This document shows, one piece after another, positions 642 through 52,249 of a DNA stretch of 64,000 nt (the stretch's first letter is position 1; the number at the start of each line of letters is the position of its first letter). The position numbers and the translations under genes were made by a program. Under the pieces are notes generated by a model. The model was not told the origin of the DNA. It did not search any database and was given only the letters and a program-made list of their open reading frames with translations. This DNA is from Rhina ancylostomus. Lineage: Eukaryota. The stretch spans positions 18,306,620-18,370,619 of the forward strand of contig JARFYF010000012.1 of NCBI GenBank assembly GCA_030265395.1, in the 5' to 3' direction.

Positions 642-825
642 TACTGACCAGTGAGGGTATAGTGTTTATCTCAGATTTTTCACCATCCAAACCTCCCAGT
701 AGCTCAGGAAAGAAGGTTTATATATCAAGTCCTCATTCAAGTCCTGCCCATACAAAACCAGCAGCTACTGGTGCCAAGAAAGCTTTAAACAAAGTGAAAA
801 TCCTCATCACCAATGAAAAACCAAA
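642..825 (+). CDS. WDR11: WDR11 exon 5 (LTSEGIVFISDFSPSKPPSSSGKKVYISSPHSSP...ILITNEKP)
   Basis: tttcag| acceptor, AA|gtaagt donor, 184 nt, phase 1 to 2. Confidence 0.95.
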
Positions 826-2274: not shown

Positions 2275-3255
2275 TTAACAACATTTGAATGGTACTTGCA
2301 CAGGCACATGGATAGGAAAGGTTTAAGAGGGATATGGGCCAAAGGCAGGCAAGTGGGACTAGCTTAGATGGGAATCTTGGTTGGTGTGGACCAGTTGGGC
2401 CTAAGGGCTCATTCCCTGGCTGTATGACTCTATGATGTTGTGACCTGTAAGGAGATAATGGATGAGTGATCGGATGAAAACCCGGCAAAAGGAGTTTAAT
2501 GTGGGGAAGTGTGAAGTTCTGCAGTTCAATACGAGGAATCAAAAGATGGTTTATTAAATAAATGGAGAGACTGCAAATGAGTTCAGAGGACCTAGGTGAT
2601 TAATATATGAATCACAAAAACTTAGCAGGCAGGTCTGATAAGTAGTTAAGACAGCAAAAGGCACGTTGGCCTTTATTACAAAAGGGATTGGAGTTTAAGA
2701 ATAGGGGAGTTTTGTTACAAATGTACAGGATGTTGATGAGGGTAAAGCTGGAATACTGTGCACAGTTTTGGGCCCACCTTAAAAAGGATATAATAGCATT
2801 GGAGGCAGTCTGAAGGAGATTCACCAGGCTAATTCCTGGGGCAAGAAGGCTGTCCCATCAAGAGGCTGGATGGTTTGGGCCTGTAATCATTGGAGTTTAG
2901 AAGAATGAGGGGTTGCATTCAAACATATGAGATCCTAAGGGGGCTTGACAGGGTAGATGTTCTCACTAGCGGGAGGGTCATGAACAAGGGGACATAGCTA
3001 CAAAATAAGAAGCCAGTCATTTAAAACTGAGGTCCATATAAATTTCTTCTCTTGAGGGTAGTGAAGACCAGATCATTAGATATATTTAAGGTGGTGACAG
3101 ATAAATATTTGAAAGATTGAGCAATTGAGGGTTATGGGGAACTGACACAAAAAACAGTTGAGACTAACGTAGATCAGCCACGATCATATTAAATCACAGG
3201 ACAGGTTTGAGGAGTCTGATAGCCTACTCTTGCTCTTATTTTCTTGTTTTCTGTT
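2275..3255 (+). mobile_element. CR1-type LINE fragments (3' tail, then RT C-terminus and 3' UTR of a second copy)
   Basis: Decayed LEYCAQFW and RRFTRLIPG coding motifs; typical gggcc...tgtatgactctatga and gcctactc tails. Confidence 0.8.
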
Positions 3256-4516
3256 CAGCCCAATTAAATGTCACTATAAAGCTTGAAGTTAAATAGTACT
3301 TTTGGAGAGTAAATTATACCTCAGAGTACGTACACTATAACATGTTTTTTCTCATAAATTGCAGCTACGTGGGAACAATCTGAAGACCTACGTGAAATCT
3401 AACACCCTGGAAAATTACTGTCCACTCACTGTAATTAGTCCAATTAATTAAATGTGCAGATAGGAAAAAAACATTTTTATTGTTAGATTTTTTCCAAAGA
3501 ACATTAACGTAATTACAAGATGTCAACCAAAACACATACAATGTCCACTGGAAATATTACAGCTCAAGTTTTAAGTATGCAGCCTGCACATCCAAAGGCT
3601 GCCCTGTTACTCAACTGACTGAGCAGAAAATCTAAATACAAGTGCCTGCATTACCCAGAGTCACAAAGTACAGACTGAGGATTAAACCGATGAAATTTGC
3701 TTAGCAACCAACTCATTAGAAGCAGAGTTCAGAAACAGGCCAGCGATCCACTCACTCACTCCCTTATCTCCCCTGTAAAAGATAACAGTCTCCAGCTACC
3801 ATCAGTCTCAGTAAGCTGTGTCTTCAGGAACTTCAGGCCCTATTTTCCCCACAGCACTTTAAAAAATTAAATATTTCATTGCTGTGAAGTGTTTTGGAAG
3901 ATCACCTCAAAATACTACAGAAATGTAAGTCTAAAAAACATCGAATCAAGCCACACCGCATCATCTAATTTCCATGTATTTTGTCTTCCTTCACACAAAA
4001 TTGAAAGGGATAGGGGTGAACACGCACTGGAAGCAAAACAACATCACACAACTAAAATTAATTGTTATTCTCCAAGGAGACGATGGCTGCTGAAGAGGAG
4101 AAGTGGATGGGGACATTTGGTAACTGATGACAGGCGCCACGCAAATGATTAGTCACACTGGATTCCCTGCTAATCAATTCAAGATAAACTGGTTTCAAAA
4201 ACACAGGACTTGGTTTGGTCTGGGGAGTAGAATCACCTCCTTAACAATGGCGTACTGTAAAGATTGCCTCGACTGACTGACTCAAGCCACAAGGTTATGT
4301 CACACCACGAAAACCTCTAGGTCTTCAAATGAAAAAGGACTGACAACTCTGACTCTATCCCGTTCCCACATTAATCTTCATGTGGCAGACACAGCCTTGG
4401 TTTCATAAAGATCTATACTGATTTTAAAGATCGACCACAGACCACCTTACCCTGGAAATTCTCCATTTAAAATATATTGAATTTCAATCTCCTTCATTTC
4501 CATTAACCGTGCATTA

Positions 4517-4536
4517 ACACACACACACACACACAC
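4517..4536. repeat. (AC)10 microsatellite
   Basis: Direct read. Confidence 0.9.
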
Positions 4537-4929
4537 TACTATAATTACCCACTCACTCTTTTTAAATAATGATCTTGGAGTTTATTTTGTTTCCCCCAAA
4601 GTTAACTTTTAATACTTTTTCCACAAGGCAACGGAACATAAAAGTGACACCACTTTGGCCTCAGCAGCGTTTGCAATTTGCACTGAGCTCCGCCGAGTGA
4701 AGGAGAAACCAGAAACAATCGACATTTATCACTTTCTGGTGGAGATTTTTAGACATTTAAAAAGTTAAATGGATACAACTGGTGGATCTTACTCTTAAAT
4801 GTTTTCGACAAAGGCTGCAACCTCCACACACCAGGATCAGCAACATTTGTTTTTCATTTTTTAAGAAGACATTTATATTTATTTTTAATCCCTCCCAGAA
4901 TAGATTTGATTTATTCACATTTAGAAAGA

Positions 4930-5525
4930 GCGAGCAAAAACACCTCAGCTTCTCCGGCTCAAGCCGCTGCCAGACGTCAGGTGTGATCGACACCAGCCGC
5001 CAGCCAATGGAAGACCAGGCTGTCGGTCCCTGCCCCGCCCGGTGAGGGCAAAAGGAACCAATCCGCGAAGAGGCGTCGCGGAACATCCGCCTGTAAGCCC
5101 GGTTGCCGGGCGCCCGCCCTTCTTTTGTTAACTCTCCGACGCCACCACAATATTTTCTTAAAATAAAGGGATGGTCTCTGTCAGACTGAGGAGGGCGGAG
5201 TAATTAGGTAGCCCAGGGAGGCCGGCGGACACTTACTTTCTGTGGAGCTGACAGGACTGCATAGTTAGACTGTGGGTAAGGTCATGGATTCGCCCGCTCC
5301 TTCCACTCGCGCTGCTGCTGCGGCAAAAAAAAGCCAGACGCAGCAACCGACGGCGCATGCGCGCTGCCAGCGCCGGTGGGGGGGGGGGCGCACGTCAGTT
5401 GCCGGCGCCCGGCAGTGCATGCGCATTCCCCCCACTGACGGCGCCGGGTGCGTGTCCTTTGCCGGCAGCGCATGCGCGTTGTGCAAACACCTGCCTCCCG
5501 CGGTGGTCACTCCAGAGATTCCGTT
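4930..5525. promoter_or_regulatory. CpG island / housekeeping-type promoter inside WDR11 intron 5
   Basis: Only CpG-dense, GC-rich block in the window. NRF1-type GCGCATGCGC at 5353 and 5468 plus a variant at 5415; CCAAT at 5004 and 5058; GC boxes at 5032 and 5111; CRE-like GACGTCA at 4973 and CACGTCA at 5391. Confidence 0.8.
5237..5340 (-). other. Candidate first exon of an antisense/nested transcript
   Basis: Minus strand reads ...ggCTTTTTTTTgccgcagcagcagc... just downstream of the NRF1 sites and ends AAA|GTAAGT (GT at 5236-5235). Confidence 0.5.
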
Positions 5526-6329
5526 CAGTTTGCATCCTATGTTTTGGGCATCAACTTTTCTATCCCGCTCATCTTTTTTATTGTTAATGGTATTGAGCAG
5601 GATAAAGACGTTGAGTTGGAGGAAATGGGTGGCGCCACCACCCACTGGAGGGCTGGGAGAATCTGGGCAGTTGCACACCTGACCTTGCACGTTGTAGGTT
5701 ACACTTCAAATGGCAATGAAATTATTACTTAACCTGAGGAGTTCCATGGATCCATAAATCAGACACAGCGAGGATGGGAAATTCTGGATAAAGGGATTTC
5801 CTACCATATCAACTTGGATTTAGTAAAGTTTTTAATGTAGAAAAAAAATGTCCCAAGGCACTTCACAAGGGTGAATCTAGTGAGGTTTTGATACTGGGCT
5901 GCTCTAAATGGCCTTTAAGGCCAGATAAAAATTTAAGCTGTGCCTCAAAAGCAGAAGATGAAGTGTGCTGGTGGTACGCTGAGTTCCTCCAGCAGATTGT
6001 TTGCTGCTCCATATTCCAGCATCTGTGGTCTCTTGTGTCTCTCTGCTGGTGGAAATGTCCTGGACATAATTTCTAGAATACCATTTTGCTTACATTGGGA
6101 AAGAAATTACGTTAGGTGATGGTTTTGCAAAGACTTCCGTTCAGTCCACTGGGATGATCAAATTTTTCAGGTCACGGGTCACTTAAATTCACTATTCCAC
6201 TCCCAATCTGACCTCTAAGCAAAATACTGCAGATGCTGGAAATCTAAAATTAAATCAAAAAATGCTAGAAATATTCAGTTTGTCAAGAAACATCTGTACC
6301 AGCACAGCACGATGGCTGAAACGGCCGTG

Positions 6330-7288: not shown

Positions 7289-7516
<228 letters not shown>

Positions 7517-7589
7517 CTAAGTGGAGAGGGAGGACCATCTCTTCCAGGGAGCATGGTGCATCTCCAGGAGTGCTGGTAGATTATTTGGC

Positions 7590-8053: not shown

Positions 8054-8219
8054 TGCCGAGTCTGTAACTTTGAATGACTGCCTGCAGTTATCTTATCTGC
8101 CATCAAAGAGGAACCATATGCTGCTGTTGTACCCCAGAGAAATCCTGATTCTTGACTTGGAGGTAAACCAAACCGTAGGCATAGTGGCAATTGAAAGAAC
8201 AGGAGCTCCTTTCCTACAG
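8054..8219 (+). CDS. WDR11: WDR11 exon 6 (AESVTLNDCLQLSYLPSKRNHMLLLYPREILILDLEVNQTVG...PFLQ)
   Basis: ttttcag| acceptor, CAG|gtaaat donor, 166 nt. Confidence 0.96.
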
Positions 8220-8839
8220 GTAAATGTTCTACAGAAACACTGTCTTTTTCTGATATTGACACATTCAGTATAAAAAGGAAATATTTAACTGGTGGAATTG
8301 AGACATTTTTTTTGTGTGACATTATCATTGAAGTTGGAAATGGCAGTGTTTGGAAATCCAATGAATGTTACCCATATCCAGTTCCTGCATTTTCACTTTT
8401 GTTACTAAAAATCAGGACTGCATTGAGAATGATTTGAAATCAAGAAATGAGTAATGATTTAATTTCATTACTTCCATATGAGGTTGGATGAAATTTGTAC
8501 GTTTTGGAAACATCTGAATTAATTCACTGCACATTACCAAATTATGGATAACTTCACATTCGGGGTAACTTGGAGCATCCAACAGTAACCTAGGCAGAAG
8601 TAGGACGGAGGTTCTTCTGAGGAGATAAAGTAATGATTTCTGGTTTACTATCTGAGCTTTGTATAATTTGGCATGTGAGTGAAACAGATCAGAGAGTTAA
8701 ATGCATGGTTCAGAGACTATAGTAAAATGAGTGATTTGTGGGGCCCTGACACAGTTACTAAGGAAAGTATTGCTTTGCTGTTCCAATCGAATGGGTTCCA
8801 GTTCTAATGTAAGGTGTTTCCTGAAAGATATTGCAAGAT

Positions 8840-12045: not shown

Positions 12046-13222
12046 GTATCTTTGTCTTCTCTGTCCTTTAAAAATTGGTTACGATATATTCAGTATCAAA
12101 TAATTCATTGAAATATAAAATTGTTTTGTACAAAGTAGTTTGTCCTCTTTTGAATCTGTTAATGTGTGAATCATATCCTGTTTCCCTGTAATTTCCCCAA
12201 AGCCTTGCCTAATTTTCTTCTTTGTCTAATTTGTCTTCAATCTGATTGACTGTAGTTCAATAGCCACTCATGGTAATGTGTTCCATGTTCTAACTTGTAT
12301 CATATCAGTTTTAGCACGTAGCTTATAACTCATGAGTATAGTAACAGCAATACTACGTCTAAAGATTAACGGATTGACCATCAAAACATTGTCCTTGTGA
12401 TAAGAAATGAAGGGAATAATGAAAGTGTTTTGAAAACGGAATATTGGGGAGGTTTAGAACAGTCAAGGATGTGTAGATTTTTAATTTTTTTCTCATTATT
12501 TATTCATGCTTATGTAATAGTGCAGAATAAATTAAATTTTCACTGAAGTTTCCTCTTGCCTATTTATCATCAACAATGCAATTAATTCCAACCTGAGAAA
12601 ATCACTAATTATTCTTTTTTTTGAGGTTGTTGATGTGTTAGGTTATTTAATTACCATATCTTTAGAGTATTATGATTTTTGCCTTGAATCCTAATGCAGA
12701 CCAGCTAACATTCTCATTCTGCTGATTTGTTACTGATATAAAACCTGTTAAATTGTAGAGTTGTCCATTGAAGTACAAGACCAATTCTAATTTTACTGGC
12801 ACAAGGATATTTGCCAAAAGGGGTTGCACACGGGGAAAGTGTCCATTACCACTGAACACCGTGCAGGTGTGTGCTATGAATTTGTGCCTTCTAAGAATTA
12901 GTCCATGCATCCCCAAATTATTTCATACAGAACTATTGCTGCCAATGGAAGTGCAAACCTATCTCATGAATCTGGACCTAATTTGATCCTGTGTCACTGA
13001 GGTAAAAAATGCAGGTTATTCCATAGCTTCTCCCATGTTCACCTTTTTGGCAGTGGTATTAACCTACCCATTGTAACCTTTTGTAATTACCCCTTCATTT
13101 AGTCATTTTATTGATGAGCATATTTCCATTACTTATCTCAATTTTCATGTCAGCGATGGTAGTTGATATGTTTGANNNNNNNNNNNNNNNCATTATTTAT
13201 TGCTATTTTCCATTTGTATCAG

Positions 13223-35782: not shown

Positions 35783-36613
35783 GTAAATGAATTTAGAACT
35801 TCTGAAGCATGGTGTCTAGTAATTAAATGTGTGACTGCCCTGAGCTGCCATCATATTTGAGCACTTCTGCTTCAGATGTGTTTGCCATCCTGTAACTCAA
35901 TAATGCAGGATCACCTGACTTGTTTGTGGTGACAAGGGAGGGAAATGAAGTCCATACCACTATTTTTCACGTCCATCCACCAAAATCTGTTGACGTTCGC
36001 AAGTTGCCCCGAGAAGATTCCAAGCTATGCACAATATCTGTCTTTGAGTAGTGGGCAGACAGAAAGGCATTTGGATGATCCACCCCTTGCCCCAGTCATA
36101 GATCTAGGTATTGCAGCTTTGCCCCACTTCATCATATCACTTCTTGACCAGAGAAATTAGAGGTGGAGACTTCCGCAGGGAGCAGCTCAGTTGCTGTATG
36201 GCCCATGCTGACACAGGTGTCGATGTCAACAAGTCATGCAGCCACAGCTTATACGTGATTGCAGAAGTGATGTCGTCTGCTTGTGGTTCTCTTGAGGAAT
36301 TAAGATATTTTTCTGGTGCAGTGCATCAAACATACAAATTAGGTGCAGGATATGGCCAATGGCTCATCAGTACCTCAACTCATTTCTGTTTAGCTGTAGT
36401 AACCTTGCACTTGCTTATCGAATATCTATTTACCACTGCCTTAAAAATGGCCACAACTCTGCTTCCACTGCCTTTTGAGGAAAAGAGTTCTAAAGAAGCT
36501 GTACTAGGTAGCAGACCCCTTATTTTTAAACAGTGACCCCCTAGTGCTAGATTATCCCATAAGAGGAAGCATCCTATCCAACTCCACTCTGTCAAGACTA
36601 ACTTTGTTACTTC

Positions 36614-36833
36614 CAGGTCCTCCCCAGTTTATGAACACCTGACTTAAGTACAGCCCATACATGCAAACAAGCATTTACAAGAGCAGTGAGATGGATTTGC
36701 CGGCTGCTGCGGGGCTGCAGGCATCTTCTGCCTTGTGGGAACTTGGTTCACAGCCGCATTTCTGACTTGCGAACTGTCTGGGTTACGAACGGCTCACAGG
36801 AATGGAACCCTGCCTTAACCTGGGGAGGACCTG
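36614..36833. mobile_element. MITE (Tigger/pogo-like non-autonomous DNA transposon)
   Basis: TIRs CAGGTCCTCCCCAG(t)TTA and TAA(c)CTGGGGAGGACCTG; TA target duplication not preserved. Confidence 0.7.
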
Positions 36834-36844
36834 AATTATGGCAC

Positions 36845-37180
36845 TGGAGAAGACCATTCAGCCAATCCAATTTATGCTGTTTCCTAGCAGAGAAATCCCA
36901 TTAGTCCCATTTCCTTTCTCTTTTCCCTTGAAGCCCTGCAAATTATTCTCTCTCCCACGCTCATCAACTTCCCTCTTGCTTTTTGCTTTGCCACTTGTCT
37001 ATACTAGGAAGTAATTTACAGTGGCCAGTTAATTTTCCAGCACACCTTTAGGATGTAAAATGAAATGGAAGGAACTAATGAAAACCAACTTGGTCACAAA
37101 AGAATGGGCAGACTTGACGTAGACAGTACTCAAGGTCAAGATCAAATCCAGATACCCAGAGCTGTAAGGCAGCACAACAG
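36845..37180 (-). mobile_element. V-SINE/HE1-like SINE
   Basis: Minus strand: tRNA-like head (gctgccttacagctctgggtatctggatttgatcttgacc), V-domain-like core (ttcttttgtgaccaagttggttttc...catcctaaagg), CR1-like tail. Confidence 0.65.
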
Positions 37181-38135
37181 CAATAAAATCCCTGAGGATC
37201 TCTAATGTTTCAACAAACATTTCAATTAAATCCCCTTTCACTCTTCTGCCTGTGCAATCTCTCCTCAAAAAAACTATCAACTCATTCCAGATATGTTTAG
37301 TAAACCTTCTCTGAACTGCTTCCAATGCATTAACGTCATTCCTTAGAAAGATAGACCAATACTACAAATGTGGTATCACCAATGCCCTATATAACTGAAG
37401 CATAACCTCCCTACTTTTCTACAATACCTAGCATTAAACTAAAATTCTATTTCATTTCCTCATTTACTAGTTGTACCTGCACATTAAACTTCAGTAAATT
37501 TTGCACCAATACATTTAGAAAATATGTTTTTAAATTTTACCTGCAAAAGAAAACGGTTTCAAATTTGCCCACATCACACATCATTTGCCAGCTCCTTGCC
37601 CACTTACTTACCCTTTCTATATCCCTTTTGAGCTTCTTTTATGTCGCCTTTGTAGCTTACTTTCCCAGCCGTCATTGGGTTATCAGCAAATTTAGCAAAA
37701 ATACCTTCGGTGCCTTAATCCAAATCTTTTATATAAAGTGTAAAAAAAATGCCTGTGNNNNNNNNNNNNNNNNNNNNNNNNNNNNNNNNNNNNNNNNNNN
37801 NNNNNNNNNNNNNNNNNNNNNNNNNNNNNNNNNNNNNNNNNNNNNNNNNNNNNNNNNATACCTTCGGTGCCTTAATCCAAATATTTTATATAAAGTGTAA
37901 AAAAAATGCCTGTGGCCCACAACTCATCACATCTTGGCAACTAGTAAAAAGCACATTAAGTCCTATTTTATTTCTGGTTAGCCAACCAATCTTTTATCCA
38001 GGTTAAACCGTGAATTATTCCTTCCAAACCATGAACTTTTATTTTCCCCAATAGGCTTTTATGTGGCCCTTTATCAAATACCTTCTGGAAACCTAAGTAT
38101 CCTATCCATTGGTTTCCCTGTATCCACAACACGAA

Positions 38136-38395
38136 CAGGCAAACACATGCTCTGCCTGCTCTTGTTATGGAAAATCGTTCTTACAGAATTCTCAAATCAC
38201 CACTCAAGCATTTGAGATATGGAATAAAATTCACTCTCATGGAATTTATGTGGAAAAATAAAGTTTTTCAACTTGTGTTTCTTGACGCATGCATAGGTAA
38301 TGCGCCTTTAAGTTATGGAAAATCGTGAGATAGCCATTTTTCCAGGAATGGACACTGGCCCCTCCCCCCAACCCCCATTACGTGAGGGTTGCCTG
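38136..38395. mobile_element. Second Tigger-like MITE
   Basis: Termini CAGGCAAAC... and ...GGGTTGCCTG; internal repeat ttatggaaaatcgt occurs twice; splits the host CR1. Confidence 0.5.
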
Positions 38396-38924
38396 TGCTT
38401 CCAAAACCTTCAATGAATGGGTCAAACGTGACTCCCCTTTCAAAAAAAACTACATTGACTTTTCTAAGTACATTCCTGTAACGTCTTTAATTGTACCTTG
38501 AAACATTTTCTCAATGACAGATGTTGAGCTAAATGAATTGTCGTTTTCTCCTTCTGGTCCCCCTTTTTGACCAAAGGAATTATATTTGCTATTTTCCAAT
38601 TTAATGGAACTTTCCCCAAATCTAGGCAGTTTTTGGAAAATTATAAACAATGCATCAACTATCAAACTAGCCGCTTTTAAGATGAATCAAATAGTGACTG
38701 GATACTTGTGTGACCATGTAGAGGGCATCTAGTATCATCTGTTTGCCATTTCCTTTCTCTATGGCTGACTACAGCTCTCCAAATGCCTGTTTGTGCTATT
38801 CCAGTGAGGATGTATAAGCTGTTGACTTCTGTTTAACCAGATAAATGTCATTCTCTATTCATTTTAATTGAGATGATGTAGAGGCTCACTTATTAAAATT
38901 CTTGTTTTGATTTCTATTTAATAG

Positions 38925-48921: not shown

Positions 48922-50079
48922 CCTCAGACATTGTGTTTGCTCGTAGATAAGTTGTTTAGAAAAGCAAGGAAAACTTCCCAGGTGTACAGTCTCTTCCCAG
49001 ACAGTGTAATGCATTGCAGCAGATGAAAACACAAGGAACCTTGAGCAAATTGATCTTCATGAACGTGGAAATCCTAGAAGAGCCATCAGCATACCAAAAA
49101 TTACTTGTACTGGATATCCATTTGAATATTAACAATATTTTCAGAGGCAGCCATCAAACCTAACTGCCTGTCACATTTGGTGCTCGACAAAAAAAGTTAC
49201 GTTAAATTAAATGTTAAAGCTTCAGCTGGTAGACAAGGCCAGATAATCAGAACATTCTCCATTTATAGATCCTGACATTTTTAATAACTATGCAGTATAA
49301 GAGTACCATGGAAGTTCTTCAGCACTGAAACTACCACTATCATTTGTGTTGACTTAACAAGCTCAAATTTTATGTTTTTTCACATCTTCAGCCAGGAACC
49401 TGTCTTCTGAAAAAGTATTGTTGTTTTGCTCTATAATTGTATTCCCTCTGGTGCCATTCTCCATCAAGCATCAGACAGAGAAAGAGTTATCAAATCCAGC
49501 AGCAGTTCATAAAATCCATTTGCCATCTGCTACAATTTTGTAACTTTAGGGGTCTTTTTGGTCTCAGTCTTAAAAAGTGCTGTTGAATCATTAGATTCCT
49601 CCATTAGCTTCTGACTTAATTGGGATTCAATGTGAAAAAACATTTAAAAATGAGTCAAAGATAATACACTACACTGCATAAAGAAAAATAACAGTTAGTT
49701 AAAAAGATTCCTAGCATAAAATATGGCAGAGAATTATCAAACAAGTTGACAAACCAACAGTAGCATTACACTAAATGTTCTAAATAAAACACACAAATGT
49801 GTTTCCACAGGGGGATATGTGAGTAAGAAAGTCATGGATAAACAAATTAAGCCGAACTGAAAATCAAAAGAACATGTATAATAATATAGTACCAACCGTG
49901 TAATCTTGAATATGAAAATTCTAATGGGGATTTGAACAGTAAAGGTTAGAAGCACTAAAATGTCATCTTTTTTAATTGAAGAATAGAATCTATTTTTATT
50001 TGTAATGATTTCCTGATTCAGCTGTATGCTTAATTTTCATTTTCAGTACTTTCAATTTTTTTTTGGGTTATGCCTACAG

Positions 50080-50093
50080 AAGGTGTCCAGCTA
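50080..50093 (+). CDS. WDR11: WDR11 exon 26, visible 5' stub only (EGVQL...); remainder in N gap
   Basis: cctacag|aa ggt gtc cag cta continues ...GKLA-EGVQL in the correct phase, then Ns start at 50094. Confidence 0.88.
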
Positions 50094-50361
50094 NNNNNNN
50101 NNNNNNNNNNNNNNNNNNNNNNNNNNNNNNNNNNNNNNNNNNNNNNNNNNNNNNNNNNNNNNNNNNNNNNNNNNNNNNNNNNNNNNNNNNNNNNNNNNNN
50201 NNNNNNNNNNNNNNNNNNNNNNNNNNNNNNNNNNNNNNNNNNNNNNNNNNNNNNNNNNNNNNNNNNNNNNNNNNNNNNNNNNNNNNNNNNNNNNNNNNNN
50301 NNNNNNNNNNNNNNNNNNNNNNNNNNNNNNNNNNNNNNNNNNNNNNNNNNNNNNNNNNNNN

Positions 50362-51700
50362 NTCTCATAATTTTTAAAAAAACCTCTATCAGGTCTCCCC
50401 TCAGCCTCCAGCACGTGAGGGAAAACAACCCAAGTGTGTCCAACTTTATAGTTTGTACCTTCTATTCCAGGCAGCATCTTGGTAAACCTCTTCTGCACCG
50501 TTTCCATGGTCTCTACATCCTTCCTATAAATGGGCAACCAGAACTGCAGATAATACTCCAAGTGCGGTCTGGGTAAAGTTTTATATAGTTGCAGCATGAC
50601 TTCCTTATTCTTATACTCAACATCCCTACCACTGAAGGCAAACAGGCCATATGCCTTCTTTATCACCTTATCCACTTGTGTAGCAACTTGCAGTGAATTA
50701 TGGAATTGGACTCCAAGATCCCTCTGTACTTCAATGCTATTAAGGGGCCTACCATTGACTGTATACTTTCTCCTTTCATTTGACCTCCCAAAGCGCAACT
50801 CCTCTCACTTGCCCAGATTAAATGTCATCTGCTACTTCTCTGCCCATATCTGTAACTGATCTGTATTCCCACTGTATTCTTTGATACTCCTTTACACTGT
50901 ACAAAACTCCACCTATCTTGGTGTCATCCACAAACTTGCTAATCCACCCATCTGCATTTTCATTCAAATCATTAATCTATATCACAAACAGAGGTCCCAG
51001 CACCGATCCTTGAGGAACACCATTGGTCATGGACCTCCAGCGAGAATAACAGCCTTCCGCCCCTACCCTCTGTCGTCTATGGACAAGCCAGTTCTGAATC
51101 CAAAGTTGCAATTCACCCTGGATCCCGTGCATCTTTATCTTCTGAATCAACCTACCATGAGGCACCTATCAAATGCCTTCCTAAAGTCCATGTAGTTAAC
51201 GTACACTGCCTTACCTCATCAAGCGCCTTTGTCACCTCCTCAAAAAAAATTCAATCAAGGTTTGGAAGGCATGACCTGCCCTGCACAAAGCTATGCTGAC
51301 TGTCTCTAAACAGACTATGACTTTCCAAATGTGCATAAATTCTATCCCTAAATATACTCTCTAAAAGATTCCCTACCACTGACGTGAGGCTCATTGGCCT
51401 ATAATTACCTGGATTATCCCTATTTCCTTTGAACAACGGCACAACATTTGCTGCTCTCCAGTCCTCCAGGAGACTGTTGTGCCTATTGCTAGTGAGGACA
51501 GAAAGATCTTTGTCAAAAACCCAGAAATCTCCTCACTTGCTTCTTTCAATATTCTGGGATGTATGCTATCAGGTCCTAGGGACTTATTCACCTTAATGAT
51601 TTTCAGAAGACCCAGCACATTAGCGTGCCCCATTCTGCTTCCACTATCCTTCAAATCCTTCTCCTCGGTAAATACCGACACAAAGTACTTACTTAGCACC
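50362..51700 (-). mobile_element. CR1 LINE RT fragment (best preserved; stops and frameshifts present)
   Basis: GNYRPMSLTSVVG, SQHSFVQGRSCL, GVPQGSVLGPLF, RDLGVQ, RPHLEY and LRGDLIEV in the ORF track. Confidence 0.92.
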
Positions 51701-52249
51701 AGAAAAGGTTATTAAAAGTTCCAGAAATTGAAACTATGATCATCCATAATTTTGCTTTCTTAAGTATTTCTAAGCATTTTTTTACAAGGTAATAGCTTGT
51801 ATGCAAGTGAATGGCATAAAAAGAATTGTTCCGTGCTTGTGGGTGTCTGCAAAGGCAATCTACCTAGTTAAGATGGCGAGCCTGCTTTTTCATATTGGAT
51901 TAGATGTATAATATCTAATAAAGTGAATAACTCAGTTTAACCACATTTTTAATCGATTAGTCATCAGAAATACAATATTTCACAACGAAGGGCAACCTGA
52001 CAAACTTTAGAAATGTTGGAAAATATCAACCTGAACACGTCGCGGGGAAGCCAATCTCAAAACCTTGCCTATTTGTCATTAATTACGTCAGACGTTAGTA
52101 TATGAACTTGTGTTCAGTTTACTCTCTCTGCTATTTTAATCCATTTTAAAATATATGGGGTTGGTACTTCCATGTCATGCTGATGAAAGACATTCAAGTG
52201 AGAGCATTTGTGTGCTAATATTTGAGGGGTGAAATCTCAAAAACAGAGG

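Follow-up and report, generated by a model that had tools for sequence, protein, structure and literature searches.

Whether a CpG island inside an intron is a promoter and, if so, what is transcribed from it and how far, is the question raised by positions 4930–5525 of the window, as the whole analysed stretch of 64,000 nucleotides of Rhina ancylostomus DNA is called here (positions to the left of it carry a minus sign). A sequence-only reading had proposed an unannotated minus-strand transcript that starts in the island and runs antisense across exon 5 and the upstream exons of WDR11. Our analysis leans, if only slightly, towards an orphan promoter whose main output would be a short, non-coding minus-strand RNA that ends within about 2 kb, in the same intron. 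Besides the assembly, sequencing runs were used, among them X1, a probable RNA run of one related species (its RNA nature being guessed), and X3, a run of another related species. The coordinates of the features are collected in Table 1.

Table 1. Features of the intronic island and its surroundings, with positions in the window
Feature	Position	Strand	Basis or remark
CpG island, single copy	4930–5525	.	WDR11 intron 5; base counts and genome search
Left motif cluster: CRE-like, two CCAAT, two GC boxes, RFX half-site	4973–5119	.	Core positions
Right motif cluster: three NRF1-type sites, CRE and RFX half-sites, G11 run	5353–5477	.	Core positions
Left shore, likely antisense RNA footprint	3241–4930	-	Repeat-free, CpG-raised, skew opposite to WDR11
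Unspliced X1 contig, 357 nt, depth 6.2	4596–4946	Unreadable	Immediately to the left of the island
Candidate first exon, 97 nt, ATGs at 5285 and 5262	5237–5333	-	Sequence
Consensus splice donor, GT 5236–5235	5231–5239	-	9-mer identical to WDR11 exon-5 donor; unchanged in X3
Weaker donor, score 7.3	5273–5281	+	Donor matrix; absent from the sequence-only reading
C+T8 run	5325–5333	-	Sequence; not kept as such in X3
Five poly(A)-signal hexamers, 5' bases 4915, 4889, 4883, 4613, 4586	4581–4915	-	Hexamer scan; next at 3481
WDR11 exon 5	about 642–825	+	Protein mapping
WDR11 exon 6	8054–8221	+	Protein mapping; exact borders matched by 9156-nt X1 contig
PLPP4 exon 1	about -88240 (L010:1660-1760)	-	Head to head with WDR11
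PLPP4 exon 2	-166069 (L018:3825-3933)	-	Head to head with WDR11

The island and its host gene

WDR11 on the plus strand was found to be the host gene, with 28 pieces of a stingray WDR11 protein mapping in order from -27742 to 58915 and residues 1–28 being identical to the Hypanus sabinus protein. The island lies between exons 5 and 6 and, therefore, within intron 5, at a distance of 33 kb downstream of WDR11's own promoter. Exon 1 of WDR11 has a CpG island of its own at -28000 to -27500, and so has PLPP4 (-88400 to -86800), the next minus-strand gene found, which is arranged head to head with WDR11; the intronic island is thus away from known gene starts. A search of the genome for PF23751 gave no useful match. 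Runs of N are present in the window at 2175–2274 and 13176–13190. As had been read from the sequence, there is no gap between the island and exons 6–8, all of which are on one gap-free piece; an N gap does part the island from exon 5.

The island comprises 596 bp with a GC content of 0.62 and 54 CpG (CpG o/e 0.93), and these values exceed all three thresholds applied, which, following the methods of PMC2927911, were a GC content of at least 50%, a CpG o/e of at least 0.6 and a length of at least 400 bp. That it is the sole CpG island in the window, and an intronic one, proved correct, the only 500-nt bin with more than 13 CpG being 5001–5500, with 46. A search of the 2.2 Gb genome matched 4930–5525 to itself only, and likewise 3300–4930; the same search does recover repeats of 70–80% identity. 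A multicopy transposable element or LTR, which the sequence-only reading had named as one of the findings that would speak against it, did not emerge from this search, and a promoter derived from such an element is not supported, given the one genomic copy together with single-copy depth in the runs X2 and X3. A DNA contig of the same species spans 4479–6006 with 0 differences, and a contig of X3 spans 4584–6006 with 37–38 differences. The island itself is confirmed as real. By sequence definition, it is an orphan intragenic CpG island, an undescribed instance of a common element type; no paper on this locus was found in literature searches.

Promoter-type motifs and divergence

Clusters of NRF1 sites, CCAAT and GC boxes are typical of promoters. 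Every motif reported in the sequence-only reading was recovered in its place, with a CRE-like core at 4973, CCAAT at 5004 and 5058, GC boxes at 5035, 5114 and 5193, RFX half-sites at 5102 and 5398, NRF1-type sites at 5353, 5415 and 5468 and the G11 run at 5378–5388. The assignment of the names NRF1, CRE, CCAAT, GC box and RFX to these cores is our assumption. Motif counts were set against 2000 dinucleotide shuffles of the island. For the NRF1 core, five overlapping matches were counted vs. 0.07 expected, a number reached in none of the 2000 shuffles, and outside the island there is no further NRF1 core within 264 kb. The shares of shuffles reaching the observed count were 0.04 for CRE-like, 0.075 for the donor, 0.08 each for the CRE half-site and C+T6, 0.09 for the GC box, 0.13 for the RFX half-site and 0.26 for CCAAT. 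A clear departure from chance was obtained for the NRF1-type sites and for none of the other motifs, taken singly. Each of the three NRF1 sites is part of a unit that resembles the other two, with spacings of 62 and 53 nt, so that the sites may not be independent; possibly, the units go back to an old local duplication. A 14-nt inverted repeat is common to both clusters (5104–5117 and 5401–5414), located beside the RFX half-sites.

Comparison with X3, for whose contig 34 of the 37 differences were listed, revealed the island to be about 3% diverged and not better kept than its flanks (3.0% vs. 2.6% and 1.6%). In the left cluster, all six cores are unchanged; of the three NRF1 sites two are unchanged and the third differs at its last base, and one CRE half-site of the right cluster is altered. 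Both donors (5236, minus; 5276, plus) and both ATGs are unchanged. Within the island, substitutions affect 5 of 116 CpG positions (4.3%) vs. 13 of 480 others (2.7%). According to PMC2927911, the rate of change at methylated CpG in human DNA exceeds that at other sites more than 10-fold, and island promoters no longer show the excess. Measured with this human yardstick, the CpG/other ratio of 1.6 would be consistent with germ-line hypomethylation of the island.

Direction and extent of transcription

A promoter-like island with mainly minus-strand output is supported indirectly, namely by a CpG tail on the left only, by a skew reversal on the left and by one unspliced X1 contig. The leftward CpG tail described earlier was reproduced, CpG o/e at 3241–4500 being 0.36 vs. 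a median of 0.17, with 3 of 263 windows as high. The left shore contains 24 CpG vs. 10.2 expected (p 1.6e-4), and the right shore 5 vs. 3.4. The promoters of WDR11 and PLPP4 likewise have their CpG tail downstream (0.30 vs. 0.17 and 0.51 vs. 0.12, respectively). The absence of repeats at 3300–4930, also part of the earlier description, was confirmed but is not distinctive when compared with control stretches in two other WDR11 introns, one of which gave only five short, weak matches within 2.4 kb, while the scored repeats of the second were confined to its final 0.5 kb.

Skew (GC + TA, plus strand) at 3241–4930 was -0.234, or -0.212 without the AC repeat, in a stretch that was picked after looking and with a partial repeat mask (23% masked); this is below 34 of 34 WDR11 intron blocks, for which a mean of +0.104 (sd 0.096) and a minimum of -0.153 were determined. 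The sign of the skew flips near 5200 and is mostly positive again to the left of about 3200–3240. This pattern appears to mark a minus-strand process confined to about 2 kb, which replication initiation could mimic, given that initiation at islands can also reverse skew (PMC2927911). Since the skew is back to the WDR11 sign beyond about 3240, a short, non-coding RNA is likely, and there is no need for it to extend as far as exon 5. The proposal of an unannotated minus-strand transcript is, thus, supported in part: the firing of the minus strand has the indirect support of CpG tail, skew and X1 contig, and a reach across exon 5 and the upstream exons is not supported, the reversed skew ending near 3240. 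Negative skew was also observed at 36112–38800 and 48934–52072 (-0.153 and -0.109, respectively), where it is probably due to unmasked repeats.

In addition to the contig left of the island, X1 holds a 9156-nt contig fitting WDR11 exon 6 at its exact borders, which implies that X1 contains spliced mRNA. X1 does not blanket the intron, as evident from the absence of contigs on 3300–4545 and 4991–5965. For 4700–5600, no RNA run was listed, which was weighed neither for nor against transcription. The contig on 4596–4946 may be WDR11 pre-mRNA, with its ends set by GC content or a polymorphic G run. Two matches of 21–23 nt to a 3710-nt X1 contig (at 4608–4628 and 4850–4872) were dismissed as chance, their spacing being 242 vs. 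879 nt and the loose ends unrelated.

The candidate first exon falls into 110 nt (5214–5323) for which X3 shows no listed difference (chance about 0.04, post hoc). With a matrix built from 17 WDR11 donors, its donor received a score of 10.0 (range 5.3–11.7, in-sample). X1 contigs are without a joint at 5237, which was not counted against the exon, since contigs show presence only. The 5'TOP start that had been read at 5333, a candidate cap site, is not supported: X3 has a base inserted at 5324 and a change at 5332, read together as one extra base parting C from the T run, by which C+T8 is broken. The X1 contig was rejected as exon 2 of the 5237 donor, no acceptor being scored near 4946. A paralogue of the candidate exon was likewise rejected, with one 2-mismatch match, equal to the control and not extending beyond 23 nt. 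The z values for RNA structure on the minus strand were -0.68 for 4590–4950 and +2.09 for 5200–5340.

An unspliced RNA from 5333 is predicted to run into the poly(A) signals at 4915–4883 and 4613–4586. This cluster is moderately unusual; 13 of 368 fixed 400-nt WDR11 windows reach four signals, which is the grid count at this place, and the single window with at least five lies elsewhere. A spliced RNA is predicted to continue from an acceptor at 4089, 4086, 4026, 3930 or 3618 to the poly(A) signal at 3481, and its longest ATG frame would not exceed 45 codons. Both forms, as modelled, would end inside intron 5, in agreement with the skew and the CpG footprint.

Protein and snoRNA searches were directed at the products that had been considered for the transcript. 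A snoRNA host gene was not borne out, with 0 Rfam matches at the gathering score in the window and 40 kb upstream (L002–L005); at 3200–6000, two chance-level Rfam matches were obtained (E 0.44 and 4.6). The same applies to a nested protein gene or upstream minus-strand coding exons, none of the 131 minus-strand frames from -30000 to 5400 matching Pfam. One of four island frames had a sub-threshold match when compared with protein families (E 0.038). No relatives of the 148-codon frame at 4760–5203 were found among 1.84 billion proteins, and 0 of 57 candidates were related to the 137-codon plus-strand frame at 5269–5679; indels of +1, -5 and +16 in X3 shift the frames right of 5324. In the 109-codon minus-strand frame from 5086, five of ten X3 differences are synonymous and no stop is present, but ten differences are too few to decide, and a small protein would be compatible with them. 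For this 109-aa frame, the best value in the ESM Atlas was 0.79, with recognition below threshold. A metagenome scan gave 0 matches.

In the mechanism that we propose, NRF1, NF-Y and Sp factors would keep the island unmethylated and open, and polymerase would start leftwards from below either of the motif clusters (at about 5333 and about 4950) or from below both. The RNA would end at the poly(A) signals 4915–4586 or, if donor 5236 is used, would be spliced to an acceptor near 4089–4026 and end at 3481. None of the ORFs in such RNAs would have known relatives.

Alternative readings and known systems

A stable spliced RNA that starts at about 5333, is spliced at 5237 and continues antisense past exon 5 and the upstream exons, either as a long lncRNA or with a distal first exon of PLPP4, is considered unlikely. 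The skew turning positive again left of 3240, the 131 minus-strand frames devoid of Pfam matches and the broken TOP start in X3 argue against it; in its favour are the strong donor 97 nt past the proposed start, with the first poly(A) signal only at +418, and the 110 nt around the exon lacking a listed X3 difference. A donor ahead of the poly(A) signal is the layout of stable promoters, according to PMC6172195. In the PLPP4 version, the island would be a distal promoter. The 97-nt exon would be joined in frame to PLPP4 exon 2, with an intervening intron of 171 kb that contains the promoter and exons 1–5 of WDR11, and rays would have a broadly expressed PLPP4 isoform with a new N-terminus; this version is highly improbable in our view. 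The exon phase after ATG 5262 is 2, as after PLPP4 exon 1, which makes an in-frame distal first exon possible, although such a match is obtained by chance in one of three cases. Three chondrichthyan PLPP4 models begin with other short N-termini, which hints at alternative first exons; the candidate peptide starts none of the 25 PLPP4 proteins examined, from chondrichthyans or others, with 15 of the 35 members of the main cluster listed.

It is also doubtful that the island's main role is that of an enhancer or replication origin from which only unstable RNA is made in both directions, considering that the CpG tail is one-sided, that the contig from the probable RNA run suggests some stable RNA and that NRF1/CCAAT/GC-box clusters are typical of promoters. 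On the other side, skew is negative on the left and positive on the right, poly(A) signals follow at 45–77 nt from a start near 4960, and orphan islands often act as enhancers (PMC8286816). Very unlikely is an internal plus-strand promoter of WDR11 itself, with an exon ending at donor 5276 being spliced to exon 6 to yield a protein minus about 260 N-terminal residues. The plus-strand donor score of 7.3 would permit this, and the left cluster could fire rightwards as part of a convergent pair as in PMC11735407, but there is a plus-strand poly(A) signal at 5162, the right shore is without a CpG tail, and the shortest named, non-fragment chondrichthyan WDR11 models among those listed (15 of 18 and 15 of 21 members in two large clusters) have 1104 aa, too long for a start at exon 6. 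Finally, the block that begins at the gap (2275) and extends to about 6000 could be the 5' end of another gene, moved in evolution or misassembled, which we regard as quite unlikely. Its edges are an N gap and repeats, the reversed skew suits a first intron in opposite orientation, none of the contigs listed bridges the repeats between the island and exon 6, and a foreign BLTP2 exon is found 1.8 kb away. Yet no gap interrupts the assembly from 2275 onwards, exons 6–8 included, the intervening repeats are short, and no second copy was found in the genome, although matches of 70–80% are found by the same search. In 200 kb of the BLTP2 locus, nothing resembles the island, so the exon copy nearby adds little to this reading, and a derivation of the island from that locus was rejected for lack of a match in those 200 kb.

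The preferred reading, an orphan promoter with a short antisense product, has parallels among known systems. The ray island resembles the orphan CpG islands of PMC2944787 in lying off an annotated start, in a gene body, and in having promoter-type motifs; those islands were defined by CXXC capture, H3K4me3, Pol II and CAGE in mammals, whereas the ray island is defined by sequence and one contig. With two clusters on one island, about 200 nt apart, and donors facing each other, it is also similar to convergent promoters (PMC11735407). Convergent promoters of that kind belong to an annotated host start and are CAGE-mapped, the criterion being four mapped start sites around two nucleosome-free regions, whereas neither of the two motif clusters of the ray island is a known gene start, and their starts are predicted from motifs. 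IRAIN, an antisense lncRNA from a CpG-rich promoter in IGF1R intron 1 (PMC4150754), is likewise directed against its host gene from an intronic CpG-rich promoter; it is 5.4 kb long, imprinted and overlaps the host promoter, whereas the WDR11 start is 33 kb away from the ray island, the footprint of which stays within the intron. About half of mammalian CpG islands are orphans, many of them unannotated promoters (PMC2944787), and 42–60% of human orphan islands have promoter evidence (Illingworth et al. 2010, PMC2944787). Orphan islands being so common in mammals, another one in a ray is expected. Its use is modest, as a well-defined, testable orphan island in a cartilaginous fish; it would gain greater weight if it were true that the island drives a PLPP4 isoform or tunes WDR11 by head-on transcription. 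Distal CpG islands are reportedly treated as alternative promoters in one study.

The BLTP2 (KIAA0100/Hobbit family) sequence at 7312–7526 of the window, minus strand, is a single exon copy, 86% identical to G000:C36:39345475-39345692 and present in X3. About 10 nt of the acceptor side are kept, the donor is lost and there is a 3-nt deletion; no other piece of the parent 200-kb locus was found within 264 kb around the island. The copy is probably a non-functional remnant that arose from genomic DNA or from unspliced RNA. At the parent locus, no clear CpG island was seen in the 120 kb towards the BLTP2 5' side, and one is located 33 kb downstream of the parent exon (G000:C36:39312501-39313500, L033). 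In a further WDR11 intron stretch of the window, at 51254–51532 on the minus strand, a reverse-transcriptase fragment was detected (RVT_1, E 1.3e-4, below the cut-off).
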